Source of the DNA: an uncultured Alphaproteobacteria bacterium
Lineage (GTDB): Bacteria; Pseudomonadota; Alphaproteobacteria; HIMB59; GCA-002718135
Direction: 5' to 3'
Length of the DNA stretch: 64,000 nucleotides
Assembly (NCBI GenBank): GCA_902614085.1
Contig: CACMJS010000003.1
Location: 84,945-148,944, forward strand
Below are positions 34,180 through 59,421 of this stretch, one piece after another. Position numbers and translations under genes: made by a program. The notes beneath the pieces are model-generated. The model was not told the DNA's origin. It saw nothing but the letters and a program-made list of their open reading frames with translations, and ran no database searches. Position 1 is the stretch's first letter, and every line of letters begins with the position of its first letter.

Positions 34180-34887
34180 ATGAAAGTTGATAAAGATCAA
34201 ATATCCGCATGGGGTGTTCATGCCTTCACTGGATCAGGAGCTATACTTGGTTTTCTTGCCTTAATATCAATATTAAATAATGATCAGGTTGGTAGTTTTT
34301 TATGGCTTGGTATGGCCTTACTTGTAGATGGAGTTGATGGTACTTTAGCCAGGAAAGTTGGTGTTGAGGAAAAAGCCCCAAATCTAGATGGAATTATTTT
34401 AGATTCCATTATTGATTATCTAAATTACGTTATCAATCCAGCTCTAATGATTTACTGGTTTCAAATGGTACCATCAGGTTTTGAAATGATTATGCCTGCT
34501 CTTATATTTGGAGTTTCTTTGTATACTTTTATCAACGTTAATATGAAAACGGATGATTATTATTTCCAAGGATTTCCTGCACTCTGGAATGTTGTGGTTT
34601 TATATTTCTTTATATTAAATACAAATGAATGGATAAACCTAATGGCTATAATTATATTATCAATATTGACATTTGTTCCATGGAAATTTGTTCATCCACT
34701 AAGAGTAAAATCATTTAGAAATTTAACGATTTTTTTTACTGTAGTTTGGGCAGCAACAACACTACGATTAGTGACAAAATCAGAAATAAACTTAATTATA
34801 AATGACACAATTGTTCTTTTAATATGGTTAATTTGTACTGGCTATTTTATTTATATTTGTTTTCTTAGATCGATTAAAGACTATTAA
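34180..34887 (+). CDS. pcs: phosphatidylcholine synthase (CDP-alcohol phosphatidyltransferase family)
   Basis: AWGVHAFTGSGAILGFLAL...FLWLGMALLVDGVDGTLAR...LDSIIDYLNYV closely follows the Pcs pattern, including the DG(x2)AR...D(x3)D motif. Confidence 0.8.
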   Translation: MKVDKDQISAWGVHAFTGSGAILGFLALISILNNDQVGSFLWLGMALLVDGVDGTLARKVGVEEKAPNLDGIILDSIIDYLNYVINPALMIYWFQMVPSGFEMIMPALIFGVSLYTFINVNMKTDDYYFQGFPALWNVVVLYFFILNTNEWINLMAIIILSILTFVPWKFVHPLRVKSFRNLTIFFTVVWAATTLRLVTKSEINLIINDTIVLLIWLICTGYFIYICFLRSIKDY

Positions 34888-34989
34888 AAACTTAAGTAAT
34901 TCAATATTATTTTGTATATGCAAAAAATGCATATCAACTAAGTATGAAATTCATTTTTAAAAAGAAATAAATTTTATTATTAAAATTTC

Positions 34990-35043
34990 ATCGTTCATTT
35001 TGAATAATTCAAAACGGAAGTAAACGAAAGTTGAAGGAACGCA
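34990..35043 (+). promoter_or_regulatory. glutamine riboswitch-like aptamer (glnA RNA motif), copy 1
   Basis: AUCGUUCA ... CGGAAGUA ... GAAAGUUGAAGGAACGC. P1 forms as CGUUC (34992-96) paired with GAACG (35037-41). Internal hairpins are UUUUGAA/UUCAAAA and AAC/GUU. Confidence 0.75.
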
Positions 35044-35056
35044 TGCAAGTTATTAA

Positions 35057-35109
35057 ATCGTTCAATCTGTATTAACAGATCGGAAGTAGGCTAAAGCTGA
35101 AGGAACGCG
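35057..35109 (+). promoter_or_regulatory. glutamine riboswitch-like aptamer (glnA RNA motif), copy 2
   Basis: AUCGUUCA ... CGGAAGUAGG ... UAAAGCUGAAGGAACGC. P1 forms as CGUUC (35059-63) paired with GAACG (35103-07). The hairpins AUCUGU/ACAGAU and GGC/GCU covary relative to copy 1. Confidence 0.75.
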
Positions 35110-35126
35110 GATCTTATTATTAATTT

Positions 35127-35178
35127 CCATAGCTAAGCATGAATTATAACGGATAAGAAAGGTTTGTTATAACTATGG
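35127..35178 (+). promoter_or_regulatory. imperfect hairpin between the aptamers and the operon (candidate expression platform)
   Basis: CCAUAG (35127-32) pairs with CUAUGG (35173-78), and UUAUAAC (35144-50) pairs with GUUAUAA (35166-72). The loop carries the purine tract AAGAAAGG, and the 3' arm contains AUG 35175. Confidence 0.4.
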
Positions 35179-35237
35179 TTAAAAAGTTAGATAATAAAAA
35201 ATTATTCTATTCAAATCTCATGAGGTTTACTCATTGA
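35175..35237 (+). CDS. candidate 20-codon upstream ORF (MVKKLDNKKLFYSNLMRFTH)
   Basis: Hand translation. AAAGG lies 12 nt upstream. Its TGA stop (35235-37) overlaps the ATG of the ATP-grasp gene (TGATG). Confidence 0.3.
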   Translation: MVKKLDNKKLFYSNLMRFTH

Positions 35238-36643
35238 TGTTTAATGAAATGTATCAATCTGAGTCAGTTATAAGAAATCATTATAACAATATTAATGATT
35301 GGTTGGATCAAATGACTTCAAAAGTTATTCTTGAAAAGAACGCTGAAGCTGAATCTCATTTTAGAAATATTGGAATTACATTTTCTACAAATAACGAAAC
35401 TGCAAGAGAAAGAATTATTCCGTTTGATTTAATTCCAAGGATATTTACTTATACAGAATGGTTAAGGCTAGAAAGAGGAGTAATCCAAAGAGCTAAAGCA
35501 CTTAATGCGTTTCTTGCTGATATTTATAATCAAGGTGAAATAATAAAAGCCAGTATAATTCCTAAAGAAATTATTTACAAAAAAAAATCTTTTGAACCTT
35601 CAATGTTTGGTTTTTCACCTCCTAGAGACATTTATAGTCCTATAATTGGTATTGATTTAGTTAGAACAGGCCCAAACGAGTATTTTGTTTTGGAAGATAA
35701 TTGTCGAACGCCAAGTGGTGTTTCCTACATGCTAGAAAATAGAGAAATAATGATGCGAATGTTTCCTGATCTATTTCATAACAATAGAGTAACGCCAATA
35801 GATGATTATCCTACAAGACTTTTACAAACTTTGATGAGCTTGGCTCCTATTAAATGCGAAAATCCAGAACCCGTATGCGTATTACTTACACCTGGTCCAT
35901 TGAATAGTGCTTATTACGAACATAGTTTTTTATCAGATCAAATGGGTATTGAAATGGTTGAATCAACCGATCTATTTGTCGAAGGTAAATACCTTTATAT
36001 GAAAACAGTAGATGGCCCAAAGAGAGTAGATGTTGTTTATAGAAGAATAGATGATGATTTTTTAGATCCTCTATGTTTTAATCCTCAATCTGTAATTGGC
36101 ATTCCAGGAATTATGGATGTTTATAGAACCGGAGGTGTCAATATTTGTTCAGCTCCTGGAGCAGGTATAGCCGATGATAAAGCAATTTATATATATGTAC
36201 CTGAGATGATTAAATTTTATCTAGGTGAACAACCAATCTTAGACAACGTTGAAACATGGAATTGTGAAAAGGAACAAGAATTAAAATACGTTTTAGATAA
36301 TATAAATGAACTTGTCGTAAAAGAGGTTGATGGATCTGGAGGATATGGAATGTTAATAGGTCCAAAATCTTCAAAATCTTCTATTGAAGAATTTAAAAAT
36401 AAACTCTCAACAAATCCAAAAGGATATATAGCACAACCTTTACTTGATCTTTCGTTTTCACCAACACTCATCAAAAATCAAGTTGAAGGAAGAAGAGTAG
36501 ATTTAAGACCATTTTGTTTAATAGGGGAACATGCTCAATTAAGTTCTGGAGGCCTAACAAGAGTAGCAATGAATGAAGGTTCGTTTGTCGTCAATTCTAG
36601 CCAAGGAGGCGGTGTTAAAGACACATGGGTTTTAGCTGAATGA
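35237..36643 (+). CDS. circularly permuted type-2 ATP-grasp protein
   Basis: About 470 aa with a pattern typical of the CP_ATPgrasp_2/DUF404-407 family (IPFDLIPRI, VLEDNCRTPSGVSYMLENR, YRRIDDDFLDP, NAPG.GIADDKA, VVKEVDGSGGYGM). GAGG lies 11 nt upstream of the ATG. Confidence 0.8.
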   Translation: MFNEMYQSESVIRNHYNNINDWLDQMTSKVILEKNAEAESHFRNIGITFSTNNETARERIIPFDLIPRIFTYTEWLRLERGVIQRAKALNAFLADIYNQGEIIKASIIPKEIIYKKKSFEPSMFGFSPPRDIYSPIIGIDLVRTGPNEYFVLEDNCRTPSGVSYMLENREIMMRMFPDLFHNNRVTPIDDYPTRLLQTLMSLAPIKCENPEPVCVLLTPGPLNSAYYEHSFLSDQMGIEMVESTDLFVEGKYLYMKTVDGPKRVDVVYRRIDDDFLDPLCFNPQSVIGIPGIMDVYRTGGVNICSAPGAGIADDKAIYIYVPEMIKFYLGEQPILDNVETWNCEKEQELKYVLDNINELVVKEVDGSGGYGMLIGPKSSKSSIEEFKNKLSTNPKGYIAQPLLDLSFSPTLIKNQVEGRRVDLRPFCLIGEHAQLSSGGLTRVAMNEGSFVVNSSQGGGVKDTWVLAE

Positions 36644-36652
36644 GGTATAAAA

Positions 36653-37588
36653 ATGTTAAGTAGAACAGCAGAATATCTATATTGGATAAGTCGTTATATG
36701 GAAAGAGCCGAAACAACTGCGAGGCTTTTGGACGTTGGTTATAGAATGTCTCTTTTCCCAAATCCTAGTGGTTATAATAATGAATGGGAATCAGTGTTAT
36801 CTGCTGCCGGAGCAATAGAAGGATATAAAAATAAATATAATACAATTGAACAAAGAAATGTTGAAGATTATCTATTTTTCGATGAAAGTAATCCTTCTTC
36901 TGTCTATAATTGTATTCTTAATGCTCGAAATAACGCATTAGTAGTTAGAACTTCCTTCACCCCTGAGTCTTGGTTAGCAATTAATAAAACTTATCAAGAG
37001 ATATTAAACTTAAAAGAAAAAAAATTTACTAAATCTGATTTACCTGACCTTACTGAATGGACCATAGAGCAAGTAAACTTATTTAGAGGATCGTTAAGTT
37101 CTTTGCTTAGAAATGATGGTTATAATTTTCTTTTTCTTGGATTATTTATTGAGAGGGCAGATAACTCAGCAAGATTATTAGATGTAAAGTACTTTGTTTT
37201 ATTACCTAAACCTCAATATGTAGGCGGTAATATTGATAATATGCAATGGAGTATATTGTTACGTTCTTTATCATCATTTAGAGCTTTTCGATGGGCATAC
37301 GATGGCAATATTACCGCAACTAAAATTGCTGATTTTTTAGTTTTAAATAATAACTGCCCTAGATCTTTAAGTTTTTGTATTCAGAATATTGTTAAACATT
37401 TAAATAATCTAACATGTAGTCCAGAAAAAGTTGGAAGAATTTATAATAATTTAAAAGATCTAAATTCTAAAATTCAAGAAGAAAAAATAGAAACAATTGT
37501 TGAATATGGTCTTCATCAATTCGTAACACAATTTATTAGAAAAATATCTAGTGTTGATAATGAAATACATAAGGAGTTTTTTAATTAA
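36653..37588 (+). CDS. alpha-E domain protein (DUF403 family)
   Basis: N-terminus MLSRTAEYLYWISRYMERAE and an internal repeat GLFIERADNSARLLDV, characteristic of alpha-E proteins that partner with cpATP-grasp enzymes. Confidence 0.8.
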   Translation: MLSRTAEYLYWISRYMERAETTARLLDVGYRMSLFPNPSGYNNEWESVLSAAGAIEGYKNKYNTIEQRNVEDYLFFDESNPSSVYNCILNARNNALVVRTSFTPESWLAINKTYQEILNLKEKKFTKSDLPDLTEWTIEQVNLFRGSLSSLLRNDGYNFLFLGLFIERADNSARLLDVKYFVLLPKPQYVGGNIDNMQWSILLRSLSSFRAFRWAYDGNITATKIADFLVLNNNCPRSLSFCIQNIVKHLNNLTCSPEKVGRIYNNLKDLNSKIQEEKIETIVEYGLHQFVTQFIRKISSVDNEIHKEFFN

Positions 37589-37589
37589 T

Positions 37590-38429
37590 ATGGAACTTAT
37601 CATTGAACACACAACTAAGTATGAATATAAAAATCCAGTTTCAGGATTAATTCAAACCACTAAATTACATCCCTCAGAATACAATGGTCTAAAAATTCTA
37701 GAATGGAATGTACATAATGATTCTGCAAAAAAATCAAAAATTTATCAGGATGGTGAGGCTAATAATATTCAAAGTTTTACAAATAAAAACAAGGTTAAAA
37801 AAATACAATTTACAGTTCTTGGAAAAGTAGAGACATTTGATACAAAAGGAATTTATCAGAGTGCTTCTGATAAAATCGACCCATTAGTTTACTTAAGAGA
37901 ATCAAATTTAACAAAAGCAAATGCTGATATAAAAAATTTAGCTATTGAAGCTAAAAATGGTTTTAATGAAAATGAAAATTTAGAAACATCTCATAATCTT
38001 ATGAATTTAGTAGCTGATAAAATTGAATACAAGCCATTAACTACAAATAATCAAACAACAGCAATTGAAGCATTTATACAGAAAAAAGGAGTCTGCCAGG
38101 ACCAAGCACATATTATGATTGCTGCTGCAAAAACTCTAGGAATTCCTGCTAGATACGTAAATGGTTATATGCACAACAATTCTCATTCTTCAGAATTTCA
38201 ATCTACACATGCGTGGGCTGAATTTTATATAAATGATTTAGGCTGGGTGGGATTTGACCCCACAAACAAGTGCAGTCCTGATGAAAGATATGTACGTGTT
38301 TCTTGTGGGCTTGATGCAAGTTATGCATCACCTATTAAAGGTGTTTTTTATGGAAATATTAATAATGATTCTTTGATAGAAAACCTAGATATTCATGTAC
38401 AAACATTGGAAAATAATTCTCAACAATAA
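37590..38429 (+). CDS. transglutaminase-like cysteine peptidase-fold protein
   Basis: Catalytic-core pattern GVCQDQAHIMIAAAKTLGIPARYVNGY ... HAWAEFY ... GWVGFDPTN (Cys-His-Asp). I chose ATG 37590 with AAGGAG 14 nt upstream rather than the overlapping upstream start at 37551. Confidence 0.85.
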   Translation: MELIIEHTTKYEYKNPVSGLIQTTKLHPSEYNGLKILEWNVHNDSAKKSKIYQDGEANNIQSFTNKNKVKKIQFTVLGKVETFDTKGIYQSASDKIDPLVYLRESNLTKANADIKNLAIEAKNGFNENENLETSHNLMNLVADKIEYKPLTTNNQTTAIEAFIQKKGVCQDQAHIMIAAAKTLGIPARYVNGYMHNNSHSSEFQSTHAWAEFYINDLGWVGFDPTNKCSPDERYVRVSCGLDASYASPIKGVFYGNINNDSLIENLDIHVQTLENNSQQ

Positions 38430-57715: not shown

Positions 57716-59421
57716 TGAAAAAAATAAAAAGAGAAGCTTATGCCGATATGTATGGACCAACAACTGGTGATAAAGTCAGACTTGCCGATACTGAACTCTT
57801 TATTGAGGTGGAAAAAGATTTAACAACATATGGTGAAGAAGTAAAATTTGGTGGAGGAAAAGTTATTCGAGATGGAATGGGTCAATCTCAAGTATCTCGC
57901 AAAGACGGCGCTGTTGATACAGTTATAACAAACGCTTTAATTGTAGATATAAATGGAATTTATAAAGCTGATATTGGTCTTAAAGATGGCTTAATTAATG
58001 AAATTGGTAAGGCTGGTAACCCAGACACACAACCAAACGTAAATATTATTATTGGACCTGGGACAGAAATAATTGCTGGTGAAGGTAAAATTATAACAGC
58101 TGGTGGATTTGATAGCCATATTCATTTTATTTGTCCTCAGCAAATAGACGATGCACTTCATTCTGGTATTACTACTATGTTGGGAGGTGGAACTGGTCCT
58201 GCACATGGTACTTTAGCTACTACAGTTACACCTGGACCATGGCATATAGAGAAAATGATACAATCAGCAGATGCTTTTTCTATGAACTTAGCTTTTGCAG
58301 GAAAAGGAAACGGTTCATTGCCTCAAGCACTTGAAGAACAAGTAATTGCTGGTGCAAGCTCACTAAAATTACATGAAGATTGGGGCACAACCCCAGCAGC
58401 AATAGATAATTGTTTAAATGTAGCTGATGATAATGACATTCAAGTAATGATTCATACAGATACATTAAATGAAAGTGGATTTGTCGAAAGTACAATTAAA
58501 GCAATTAATGGACGAACAATTCACGCTTTTCATACTGAAGGAGCTGGTGGGGGTCATGCACCGGATATAATTAAAGTATGCGGAGAACAATATATTATTC
58601 CGTCATCTACAAATCCAACAAGACCATACACAGTTAATACAGTTGAAGAGCATTTAGATATGTTAATGGTTTGCCATCACTTAGATAAATCAATACCTGA
58701 AGATGTTGCGTTTGCTGAAAGTCGTATTCGCAAAGAAACAATTGCTGCAGAAGATATATTGCATGACATGGGTGCTTTTTCAATTATTGCTTCTGATAGT
58801 CAAGCCATGGGCCGTGTTGGTGAAGTTATTATTAGAACATGGCAAACAGCACATAAAATGAAAGTTCAACGGGGACAATTAAAAGAAGAGCAAGGTGATA
58901 ATGACAATGTAAGAGTGAAAAGATATATTGCTAAATATACAATTAATCCTGCAATAGCTCATGGTATTTCTAATCATATTGGAAGTATCGAAAAAAATAA
59001 ACGTGCTGATATTGTTATTTGGGATACTGCTTTTTTTGGTGTTAAACCTGAAATGGTATTACAAGGAGGAAGTATTGCTTGTGCACAAATGGGTGATCCT
59101 AATGCATCTATACCAACACCACAACCAGTATACTCAAGACCAATGTTTTCTTCTTTTGGAAAATCATTAGAAAAATCTACTGTTACTTTTGTAAGTAAAG
59201 TTTCTTTAGATAAAAATTCATTTAAAAACTCTGGTGTAAGTAAATCTTTGTTACCAGTTAAGAATATTAGAAAAATTTCTAAAAAAGATATGATATTAAA
59301 TGATTATTGTCCAAAAATAGAAGTTAACCCAGAAACTTATGAGGTTTTAGCAGATGGTGAGTTAATTACTTGTGAACCAGCCAAAACACTACCTTTAGCT
59401 CAACGTTATTTTATGTATTAA
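57715..59421 (+). CDS. ureC: urease subunit alpha
   Basis: Active-site motifs [20 protein letters not shown] (carbamylated Lys), MVCHHLD and [15 protein letters not shown]. Confidence 0.97.

Follow-up and report, generated by a model that had tools for sequence, protein, structure and literature searches.

How can a riboswitch govern an operon when the first start codon of that operon lies about 60 nt beyond the expression platform? The question is raised by a stretch of DNA of 64,000 nt from an uncultured alphaproteobacterium (GenBank contig CACMJS010000003.1, positions 84,945 to 148,944; the whole stretch is called the window below, and positions are counted from its first letter). In the window, two glutamine aptamers in tandem and a hairpin precede an operon whose first gene encodes a circularly permuted ATP-grasp protein, and the space between hairpin and gene is filled by a small upstream open reading frame (uORF). 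A first-pass annotation had put forward the hairpin and the uORF as a candidate expression platform. Comparison with relatives supports this, the uORF being kept in all of the 35 orthologous tandem-aptamer leaders, and we think that the operon is probably controlled by a relay uORF which is itself gated by the riboswitch.

In the mechanism that we propose, the host is a SAR11-type alphaproteobacterium and positions 34990-35237 would be the whole leader of a tandem glutamine riboswitch that acts on translation. Two type-1 glutamine aptamers would sense the ligand, and three elements would make up a portable platform: an invariant block (35127-42), a hairpin serving as scaffold (hairpin H, 35144-72) and a region where ribosomes bind. 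In the OFF state the block would pair as a sequestor with the initiation region just 3′ of hairpin H; in the ON state it would pair with the inter-aptamer linker (35042-53), the anti-sequestor. Capture of the linchpin cytosines by glutamine would shift the balance between the two, as conservation, complementarity and thermodynamic prediction suggest. The sequestered region would be the gene's own Shine-Dalgarno (SD) sequence and AUG in the leaders of ammonium transporter genes (amtB) that share the module, and the SD-like GAAAGG and AUG 35175 of the uORF in the window. The uORF would bridge the ~60 nt from platform to operon and end on or beside the ATP-grasp AUG, and translational coupling would pass the ribosomes admitted at the uORF on to the operon, whether by termination-reinitiation, by opening up the structure around the start, or by both. 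The uORF peptide itself would be irrelevant.

Leaders were collected from 25 species-representative genomes and 10 metagenome contigs reached via protein clusters. The tandem leaders (n=35) fall into six sequence groups, A to F, with an ATP-grasp identity of 85-99%, the window being of group A; orthologous leaders devoid of riboswitch (n=16) have an ATP-grasp identity of at most 77%. The relatives at 85-99% identity are single-cell genomes titled uncultured Alphaproteobacteria or Pelagibacteraceae, and other Pelagibacteraceae stand at 73-77%. An ATG-initiated uORF of 16-25 codons, beginning just 3′ of the hairpin, was present in 35 of 35 tandem leaders, and in all of them its stop falls -8 to +7 nt from the ATP-grasp AUG. 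The check on which the first-pass annotation had made its proposal depend, conservation of the uORF in orthologous leaders, was therefore passed, with an open frame and a stop near the ATP-grasp AUG throughout the six groups. The precise UGAUG junction that it had described (TGA 35235-37 overlapping ATG 35237) is present in the window, and exact overlap is a property of group A only, where it reads UGAUG or UAAUG. In groups B and D the stop is separated from the main AUG by 2 nt, in groups C and E it lies 4-6 nt upstream of it, and in leaders L014 and L239 it is found 8 nt inside the ATP-grasp gene. The uORF thus fills the gap and ends on or beside the ATP-grasp AUG, which is the geometry of translational coupling. 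A comparable uORF was found in just 2 of the 16 riboswitch-less leaders, both of one lineage.

Shuffle tests gave a chance of 0.10-0.31 per leader for such a uORF. Between groups, nucleotide identity of the uORF interior (0.49-0.66) is that of the shuffle baseline (0.51-0.61), compared to 0.74-0.93 for the upstream leader and 0.77-0.95 for the gene. Because the interiors are at shuffle-level identity, the groups can be treated as near-independent samples, and the joint probability, taken as the product over five to six saturated lineages, is ~1e-4 to 2e-5. Over 13 representative leaders, the uORF frame contains 0 internal stops, and the other two frames contain 37 and 29. The frame also appears to be rescued where it is damaged. 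In L240 and L328, a stop occurs at codon 4 of the group-E frame, and another AUG, 5 nt upstream and in another frame, opens an alternative uORF of 25 codons that ends UAA-AU-AUG. In L014 a frameshift is present near the 3′ end of the uORF, yet the stop comes 8 nt into the gene, as mentioned above. The group D uORF carries a 3-nt indel.

What is kept appears to be the frame rather than the peptide. Variable sites of the group A uORF are distributed 7/7/7 over the three codon positions, and its alleles differ by 7 synonymous and 16 non-synonymous changes, at a constant length of 20 codons; the corresponding figures for the first 200 codons of the ATP-grasp gene in the same group are 4/3/65, with 77 synonymous and 6 non-synonymous changes. 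Between groups the uORF peptides are unalignable. An open frame that persists in a saturated interior, with no codon-position bias, points to selection on the frame and not on the peptide, and by these counts selection favours translation across the gap, not a product. Candidates in which the peptide matters were considered and found wanting. Purifying selection on amino acids, expected of a conserved micropeptide or of a precursor of a ribosomally synthesised and post-translationally modified peptide (RiPP), is at odds with the 7/7/7 distribution and the switch of frame in L240 and L328. A leader peptide that senses glutamine by stalling (attenuation) was rejected as well, since glutamine codons are absent or incidental (none in the uORFs of groups A to D, a single one in L237 and in L239) and there is no terminator in 34800-35400. 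Nor does the locus resemble the glutamine-II RNA with a short ORF of the DUF4278 type, as the peptide is not conserved (no DUF4278 search was made on the peptide).

The two aptamers upstream are each matched by Rfam RF01739 over model positions 1-53 of 53, well above the gathering score of 35 bits (Table 1), and 11 related loci have RF01739 matches at a comparable gathering level. In the cmscan alignments both keep the core nucleotides (CGUUC...CGGAAGUA...GAAGGAACGC), among them the G of the junction and the linchpin C on the 3′ side; the roles of these residues, G23 and C60 in the type-1 aptamer, are taken from PMC11477058, in the part of it that summarises the structure of Ren et al. (2015). 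By these alignments the aptamers of the window are ordinary RF01739 members, and binding of L-glutamine is predicted. RF01704 (glutamine-II, or Downstream-peptide motif) is not among the four Rfam matches at gathering threshold in the window. No terminator-like site was found in 34800-35400, so that control must be post-transcriptional, and transcription attenuation was rejected on this ground.

Downstream of aptamer 2, RNAfold of 35112-35245 gives a two-tier hairpin (minimum free energy, MFE, -23 kcal/mol, z = -2.2; 2 of 200 shuffles fold as well). The arms described in the first-pass annotation, CCATAG 35127-32 with CTATGG 35173-78 and TTATAAC 35144-50 with GTTATAA 35166-72, are all there in the sequence, as is the purine tract AAGAAAGG of the loop, at 35155-62, and the ATG at 35175, within the 3′ arm, does open a 20-codon ORF according to the open-reading-frame listing. 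The imperfect two-part hairpin was reproduced with an inner stem longer than announced, 11 bp. In 34 of the 35 ATP-grasp tandem leaders the loop of the hairpin carries an SD-like GAAAGG or GAAGGAG, and the uORF AUG follows 6-13 nt further on. The uORF therefore has its own SD-like sequence and AUG, its start is predicted to be masked by an alternative helix, and its stop lies within a few nt of the main start in all 35 leaders, as expected of a relay. An AUG within the block itself (35139) was considered as an alternative uORF start, being in frame with the uORF in group B and L001, and was discarded: it has no SD, it is part of an element that is structured and invariant, and in other groups its frame closes after 2-5 codons.

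The block, of which the opening six bases (CCAUAG 35127-32) form the 5′ side of the outer stem, is the same in five of the six ATP-grasp groups, save for one A-to-G loop change in L014 and L325. Scanning metagenomes for the invariant 15-mer after aptamer 2 gave 13 further loci, all with both aptamers, the same linker (GCAUGCAA(A)GUUAUUAAAU), an identical block (UUUCCAUAGCUAAGCAUGA) and a hairpin at the same place. The genes that follow the tandem module in these loci are ammonium transporters (Pfam Ammonium_transp, 323 bits for L093), and those of contigs L083, L093, L101, L103, L114, L123, L124, L145, L156, L184, L195 and L198 are ammonium-transporter genes with signal peptides; L184 has two amt genes in succession, with a tandem switch before each. 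No uORF was found in the 13 amtB leaders. A 3-codon mini-ORF (AUGGAGGAUUAAUG) of some of them was not retained as a uORF, as it is not conserved in the others and its AUG is within the segment that pairs over the SD. In amtB leaders, AUUAAUUUCCAU(A) is predicted to pair with (U)AUGGAGGAUUAAU(G) over SD, spacer and start, at -9 to -11.5 kcal/mol, the partner of the block being [A/G]UGGAG(G/U/A) and the spacer up to the AUG. In nine of nine distinct amtB leaders, [A/G]U stands directly 5′ of GGAG; these two bases are needless for the SD and needed for pairing with CCAU(A). Because the same platform drives amtB in the absence of any uORF, the uORF is best regarded as an adaptor added to a portable module. 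As a side observation, the loops of the hairpins after the block in amtB leaders (L093 3866-3888, L114, L195, L184) mostly hold an SD-like RGGU (UAUGGU, GAGGUGA, CAGGUGG, UAAGGUU), with the real GGAGG downstream; they may be standby sites for the 30S subunit, or decoys that pair with the CCAU of the block.

A hairpin occupies the position of hairpin H in 22 of 22 leaders examined, with stem sequences in the amtB leaders that bear no relation to those of the ATP-grasp leaders. From one ATP-grasp group to another it shows compensatory or wobble changes (G.U/G.U in A, A-U/G-C in B, A-U/A-U in D), and L001 and L011, both of group A, have wobble-compatible ones. A hairpin that is kept everywhere with unrelated stems suggests a scaffold which brings the block next to its 3′ partner. 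The inner hairpin described in the first-pass annotation would then be the constant part and not the switching element. As for the outer stem, CCAUAG:CUAUGG would be one register of the sequestor, specific to group A (where CAUG of the block may alternatively pair with UAUG), and what is general is complementarity of the block to the 5′ end of the uORF. Such complementarity is found in each of groups A to E in differing registers, namely CAUG:UAUG and AAAUCCA:UGGAUUU in groups B and C, and CAU:AUG, CUA:UAG and CCAU:AUGG in groups D and E. Block pairing also accounts for two islands of similarity in the uORF, the KFGF peptide shared by groups B and C, because the UGGAUUU segment falls on codons 6-8, and the AUGAUAG(G/A)AUGG conserved in groups D and E. 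RNAalifold on a MAFFT alignment of 16 ATP-grasp leaders returned only a 5-bp mini-hairpin in the block and no covariation; this consensus is uninformative because, from group to group, MAFFT places the hairpin H 3′ arm one column out of register. The block (35127-35143) folds on itself as this kind of 5-bp mini-hairpin (CAU-A-GC / UAA / GC-AUG, the L014 variant altering a loop base to UAG), and folding prediction suggests that the block may thereby sequester itself, as a third state. When viral_contigs were scanned for the block and for the junction of aptamer and linker, chance matches alone came up, none of them beside an aptamer.

How might the aptamers reach this platform? The linker between them (linker-1) starts where the alignment puts the aptamer 1 linchpin C, an assignment by alignment only and not from a solved structure. 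Linker-1 is complementary to the block, CAUGC (35042-46) to GCAUG (35137-41) and GUUAU (35049-53) to AUAGC (35129-33), and RNAduplex gives -10.6 kcal/mol for the pair (z = -3.2), a value equalled by 0.75% of block shuffles. With the aptamer P1 helices enforced, the MFE structures of L093 and L103 (amtB) and of L015 (group B) form the linker-1:block helix, which encloses aptamer 2 and leaves the ribosome-binding site (RBS) free. Barring the linchpin-aligned Cs, assigned by alignment, from pairing cost about 3 kcal/mol, and L015 flipped to the fold in which the block pairs with the uORF start. In the window, three states lie within 2.1 kcal/mol (-42.7, -42.0 and -40.6), and the predicted probability that AUG 35175-77 is unpaired drops from 0.22-0.29 to 0.02-0.06 when the linchpin-aligned positions are blocked. 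The communication between aptamers and hairpin, which the first-pass annotation had found not obvious from the sequence, could thus pass through this alternative pairing; the constrained folds make it plausible. Variants in group D (GCGUGC, giving a G.U pair) and internal-loop changes in L083, L156 and L014 are compatible with linker-1:block. A GGA(A):UCC hairpin after aptamer 2 was tried as the anti-sequestor; most leaders have it and some MFE structures form it, but it is not conserved in group D (CAGA or CAGU), and it was kept as an auxiliary helix.

Upon glutamine binding, a C is captured in the G-C linchpin pair and a short helix attached to P1 melts, which in the Synechocystis gifB leader frees the RBS (PMC6212724, PMC11477058). 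By the same logic, the block would be released here and would go on to shut the initiation region. If this cyanobacterial logic holds, we lean slightly towards glutamine turning translation OFF. Alternatively, the junction of the bound state could stabilise the linker:block helix. As for the architecture as a whole, a fuller scheme can be offered only tentatively, and in our judgement with the odds somewhat against it: the linker and the aptamer 2 tail would jointly clamp one 16-nt anti-RBS block, as a two-input gate in a portable module that has been set before unrelated genes, and the relay uORF would be a natural bicistronic adaptor used where the gene's own start cannot join the platform.

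Table 1. Coordinates of the leader elements and operon genes in the window.
Feature	Position	Strand	Basis or remark
Glutamine riboswitch aptamer 1 (type 1, glnA RNA)	34990..35045	+	Rfam RF01739, 66.0 bits
Linker-1 element CAUGCAAGUUAU	35042..35053	+	proposed anti-sequestor strand; near-invariant in all tandem leaders
Glutamine riboswitch aptamer 2	35057..35111	+	Rfam RF01739, 64.2 bits
Invariant 16-nt block CCAUAGCUAAGCAUGA	35127..35142	+	proposed sequestor (anti-RBS / anti-start) strand
Hairpin H, 11-bp stem (35144-54 with 35162-72), 7-nt loop AAGAAAG	35144..35172	+	RNAfold
SD-like GAAAGG for the uORF	35157..35162	+	in hairpin H loop and first 3′ stem base
CUAUGG, outer-stem 3′ arm with uORF AUG	35173..35178	+	complementary to CCAUAG 35127-32
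uORF, 20 codons + UGA, proposed relay ORF (MVKKLDNKKLFYSNLMRFTH)	35175..35237	+	open-reading-frame listing
Weak local hairpin around main-gene GAGG (35222-25), uORF stop and main AUG	35213..35242	+	RNAfold, -6.8 kcal/mol, z = -1.3
Circularly permuted ATP-grasp type 2 gene, first of operon	35237..36643	+	Pfam PF14403, 510 bits
Alpha-E domain gene	36653..37588	+	Pfam PF04168, 292 bits; own GAGG 8 nt upstream
Transglutaminase-like gene (start approximate)	37551..38429	+	Pfam PF01841 and PF08379

At the other end of the uORF, the ATP-grasp start was placed at ATG 35237 and the in-frame TTG 35234 was rejected, since the N-terminus MFNEMYQ is kept from residue 1 in all orthologues. The main-gene GAGG that the first-pass annotation had located inside the uORF is indeed there; this SD, 11 nt upstream of the ATP-grasp AUG, is a feature of group A only, and groups B to F have no SD for the main gene. 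Ensemble folds of the window give it a probability of being unpaired of ~0. Synthetic 'bicistronic design' leaders have a short leader ORF whose stop overlaps the gene start, with no regulator, and serve as insulators. Group A is like these designs in having a second SD inside the leader ORF. No consistent complementarity of the block to the main start region was seen in duplex and constrained folds.

Several points weigh against the reading that we prefer. A lone 20-codon ORF in 22%-GC sequence is insignificant by itself (P ~0.08-0.14 from shuffles), and significance therefore rests on conservation across lineages. The SD-like GAAAGG is weak, is partly taken up in the hairpin H stem, and in most groups stands 10-13 nt away from the AUG. 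For the block:uORF duplex the z-scores are modest, -0.1 to -2.2, so that the case is made mainly by recurrence across groups. Among the leaders compared, no compensatory double change was found for either switching helix, as linker and block are essentially invariant, and conservation of the auxiliary GGA:UCC helix breaks down in group D. Two leaders depart from the common pattern: L239, the one leader of group F, has a different block and its nearest GAAAGG is ~24 nt upstream of the uORF AUG, and L234, a single-aptamer variant of the same operon, has no long uORF. At the main start, the opening energy of positions -15 to +12 around the ATP-grasp AUG is on average 6.7 kcal/mol in tandem leaders and 7.6 kcal/mol in riboswitch-less ones; as these values are alike, the claim of a specially masked main RBS was dropped. 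Riboswitch-less orthologues are also devoid of both SD and uORF, and independent initiation at the ATP-grasp AUG with no SD is therefore evidently possible in the clade. Lastly, the polarity suggested above meets the behaviour of the riboswitch-associated Amt paralogues of Pelagibacter, one of which is made only under nitrogen limitation and the other only under repletion (PMC3870248). Polarity was not assignable from this physiology, because the paralogues are opposite and the intergenic regions concerned measure 146 and 125 nt (PMC2704228), which leaves no room for the tandem module; for the former reason either polarity is biologically plausible.

Four other explanations of the uORF were weighed. 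The one that holds up best, and which we regard as a live variant even if an unlikely one, is that uORF translation mainly protects the leader or operon mRNA from Rho termination or RNase, the signal being carried by polarity or stability. It draws on the same comparative facts, an open frame selected and not a peptide, and on the apparent ability of the main start to initiate without SD or uORF in riboswitch-less orthologues, and the Mycobacterium study discussed below had to exclude this alternative by experiment (PMC11260477). Protection, however, needs no stop within -8 to +7 nt of the main AUG, and such a stop is found in 35 of 35 leaders even though uORF length ranges over 16-25 codons and the frame changes. 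In addition, the unprotected gap of ~60 nt is very short for Rho loading, and the sequence, very C-poor and of 11-29% GC, makes a poor rut site.

The remaining three explanations are less likely. It is improbable that the uORF is a functionless by-product of RNA constraints, the operon being controlled by pairing of the block with the true start or by transcription. A single such ORF does have a chance of 0.1-0.3 in AT-rich sequence, its first codons (AUGAUAG..., CUAUGG) are constrained by block pairing, which fixes the AUG, and the SD spacing is long. A fixed AUG nevertheless leaves unexplained the 16-25-codon open frame in the saturated sequence of six groups, with 0 in-frame stops against 66 out-of-frame ones, the frame rescue in L240 and L328, and a stop that always abuts the main AUG; there is moreover no terminator, and no consistent block:main-start complementarity. 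Less probable again is an inhibitory uORF, whose translation would occlude or bypass the main start and invert the output of the riboswitch. Inhibitory uORFs exist in bacterial riboswitch leaders, such as that of M. tuberculosis metE (PMC11260477), and the main start may initiate on its own; the overlap or proximity of stop and start is however the geometry of positive coupling, an occluding uORF need not end at the main AUG, and groups B to F have no main-gene SD. Finally, although ATP-grasp enzymes modify small peptides in some RiPP systems, and although the peptides are hydrophobic and aromatic-rich with ..KFGF.. shared by groups B and C, a functional micropeptide encoded by the first cistron (a substrate or precursor for the ATP-grasp or transglutaminase protein, or a small membrane peptide) is very improbable, given the 7/7/7 codon positions and the 16 non-synonymous against 7 synonymous changes, peptides unalignable between groups at baseline nucleotide identity, frames that differ within one group (L236 compared to L240 and L328), an amino-acid composition such as AT-rich codons give, KFGF codons that coincide with the block-pairing UGGAUUU segment, and riboswitch-less orthologous operons that lack such an ORF.

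The closest precedent for a riboswitch-gated relay uORF is the B12 riboswitch of M. tuberculosis ppe2 (Kipkorir et al., NAR 2024, PMC11260477), whose platform controls the uORF uPPE2; PPE2 has no SD and its start overlaps the uPPE2 stop as AUGA. Moving the stop or killing uORF initiation there abolishes expression and B12 sensing, via termination-reinitiation (PMC11260477). The likeness is that of a translational switch which masks the initiation region of a short uORF whose stop overlaps the main start (AUGA there, UGAUG here), before a gene that has no SD in ppe2 and likewise in groups B to F. The two differ in ligand (glutamine here, B12 there), in aptamer number (tandem here, single there) and in host, an AT-rich SAR11 bacterium as opposed to a GC-rich actinobacterium, and unlike in ppe2 the same platform here also drives amtB directly. 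The ppe2 relay was shown by experiment, whereas the one proposed here is supported by comparative genomics alone. In the CsrA-iraD leader, too, a short leader ORF has a stop that overlaps the gene start, and it is the RBS of this ORF that the regulator acts on (Park et al. 2017, as cited in PMC11260477); according to that citation the regulator is the protein CsrA, in place of the metabolite-sensing RNA of our locus. The riboswitch-uORF relay as such (ppe2/uPPE2), and its counterpart with a protein regulator (CsrA-iraD), are thus already known.

Among glutamine riboswitches, the leader resembles that of Synechocystis gifB (Klähn et al., NAR 2018, PMC6212724), also an RF01739 member and translational, in which the 3′ tail from the linchpin C talks to the platform. 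In gifB the single aptamer makes an ON switch, its tail being proposed to pair directly with the RBS of the gene (PMC6212724). In the window there are two aptamers, and linker and tail would pair with an intermediate block which itself pairs with the RBS, that is one extra inversion; the RBS moreover belongs to the uORF, and the host is an alphaproteobacterium. The glutamine-II or Downstream-peptide motif (Weinberg et al. 2010, PMC2864571; Huang et al. 2019, PMC6698751) is likewise a glutamine RNA placed before a very short ORF (17-100 codons) in marine bacteria, but its ORFs encode conserved DUF4278/IF17-like proteins with a synonymous bias, which are themselves the regulated product, whereas here the peptide is not conserved and the ORF abuts a large operon. 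The tandem glycine riboswitch, as cited in PMC2864571, is comparable in having two homologous aptamers for the same amino-acid ligand and one platform; its aptamers are described as docking on each other, whereas here the linker and the aptamer 2 tail are proposed to hold one anti-RBS block.

Glutamine riboswitches were described as exclusive to cyanobacteria by Klähn et al. 2018 (PMC6212724). We found them in 25 of the 42 Pelagibacterales-type genome loci examined, and before amtB in marine metagenomes; marine metagenomic and tandem copies, some before ammonium transporters, had been noted earlier (PMC2864571). The first-pass annotation knew of no such mechanism for glutamine riboswitches, and we agree that it is undescribed. 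What appears to be new, as judged from the leaders compared, is a relay uORF behind a glutamine riboswitch that is indifferent to its peptide, the alphaproteobacterial host, and a module that exists with and without relay. SAR11 bacteria lack the PII/NtrBC nitrogen-sensing network, and how they sense nitrogen status is an open question (PMC3870248). A glutamine switch gating amtB as well as an uncharacterised ATP-grasp/Alpha-E/transglutaminase operon would be a concrete and testable route of post-transcriptional nitrogen sensing, and it would link this uncharacterised operon to nitrogen status. The platforms of glutamine riboswitches are barely characterised, the sole proposal being that for the single-aptamer gifB leader, and the comparison defines elements with coordinates: linker, invariant block, scaffold hairpin and relay uORF. 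The relay from riboswitch to uORF to operon, so far shown for the M. tuberculosis B12 switch only, would extend to a second riboswitch class and phylum, which suggests that relay uORFs may be a general way to attach a portable riboswitch to an arbitrary gene. If the scheme of a two-input gate with an adaptor uORF is true, no expression-platform mechanism would have preceded it for tandem glutamine riboswitches, and it would be the first natural case of one riboswitch module with and without a relay uORF.

Some variant leaders are described here for themselves. In L234 (259-365; ATP-grasp 79% identical), there is one glutamine aptamer of 54 bits, with GACGGAACGC replacing GAAGGAACGC. The CUCUUUCU that follows the aptamer is complementary to GAAAGAAG, directly 5′ of the main AUG, and the only mini-ORF has 5 codons. 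By this arrangement, L234 looks to be under direct SD control, with no relay uORF. The group F leader L239 (415-551; 88% protein identity, from a cluster of 50 members) has both aptamers and a 24-codon uORF; its block is replaced by ...CAUAACAAAGACAUUUUCUAAACUCGGCAUGA, with only GCAUGA left of the invariant sequence, and the start of its uORF, GUGGGAUGG, has a pairing partner in UCAUCUCAC, close to the 3′ end of that ORF. An analogous helix is found in group E between AUAGGAUGG and CCAUCCUAU, and in L240 between AUGAUAGGGUGA and UCAUCCUAUCAU, with one compensatory change.

Upstream of aptamer 1, by ~55 nt, a perfect inverted repeat, ATATGCA-AAAAA-TGCATAT, is found at 34916-34934. The same palindrome (TATATGCATTTTTTGCATATC) is present in L238, and TTGCATA half-sites are present in L236, L237 and L239. 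The repeat may serve this leader as an operator or as part of a promoter. The riboswitch-less Pelagibacteraceae L026-L042 and L031-L033 have a common motif, TGTCAATTTGGCAA(A/T)NGCAT, ~60-70 nt 5′ of the ATP-grasp ATG (locus ~1430-1445), and in L035 and L037 a motif of the TGTCAATTTGGCAA type occurs as an inverted pair (CTAAATTGGCA...TGCCAAATTGAC). It may be a protein-binding site that substitutes for the riboswitch. Elsewhere in the window, at 57867-58151 on the - strand, Rfam reports a match of 127.6 bits to 5_ureB_sRNA, a model that is antisense to the Helicobacter ureB coding sequence. This match most likely reflects similarity of a ureB coding sequence, and not a small RNA.

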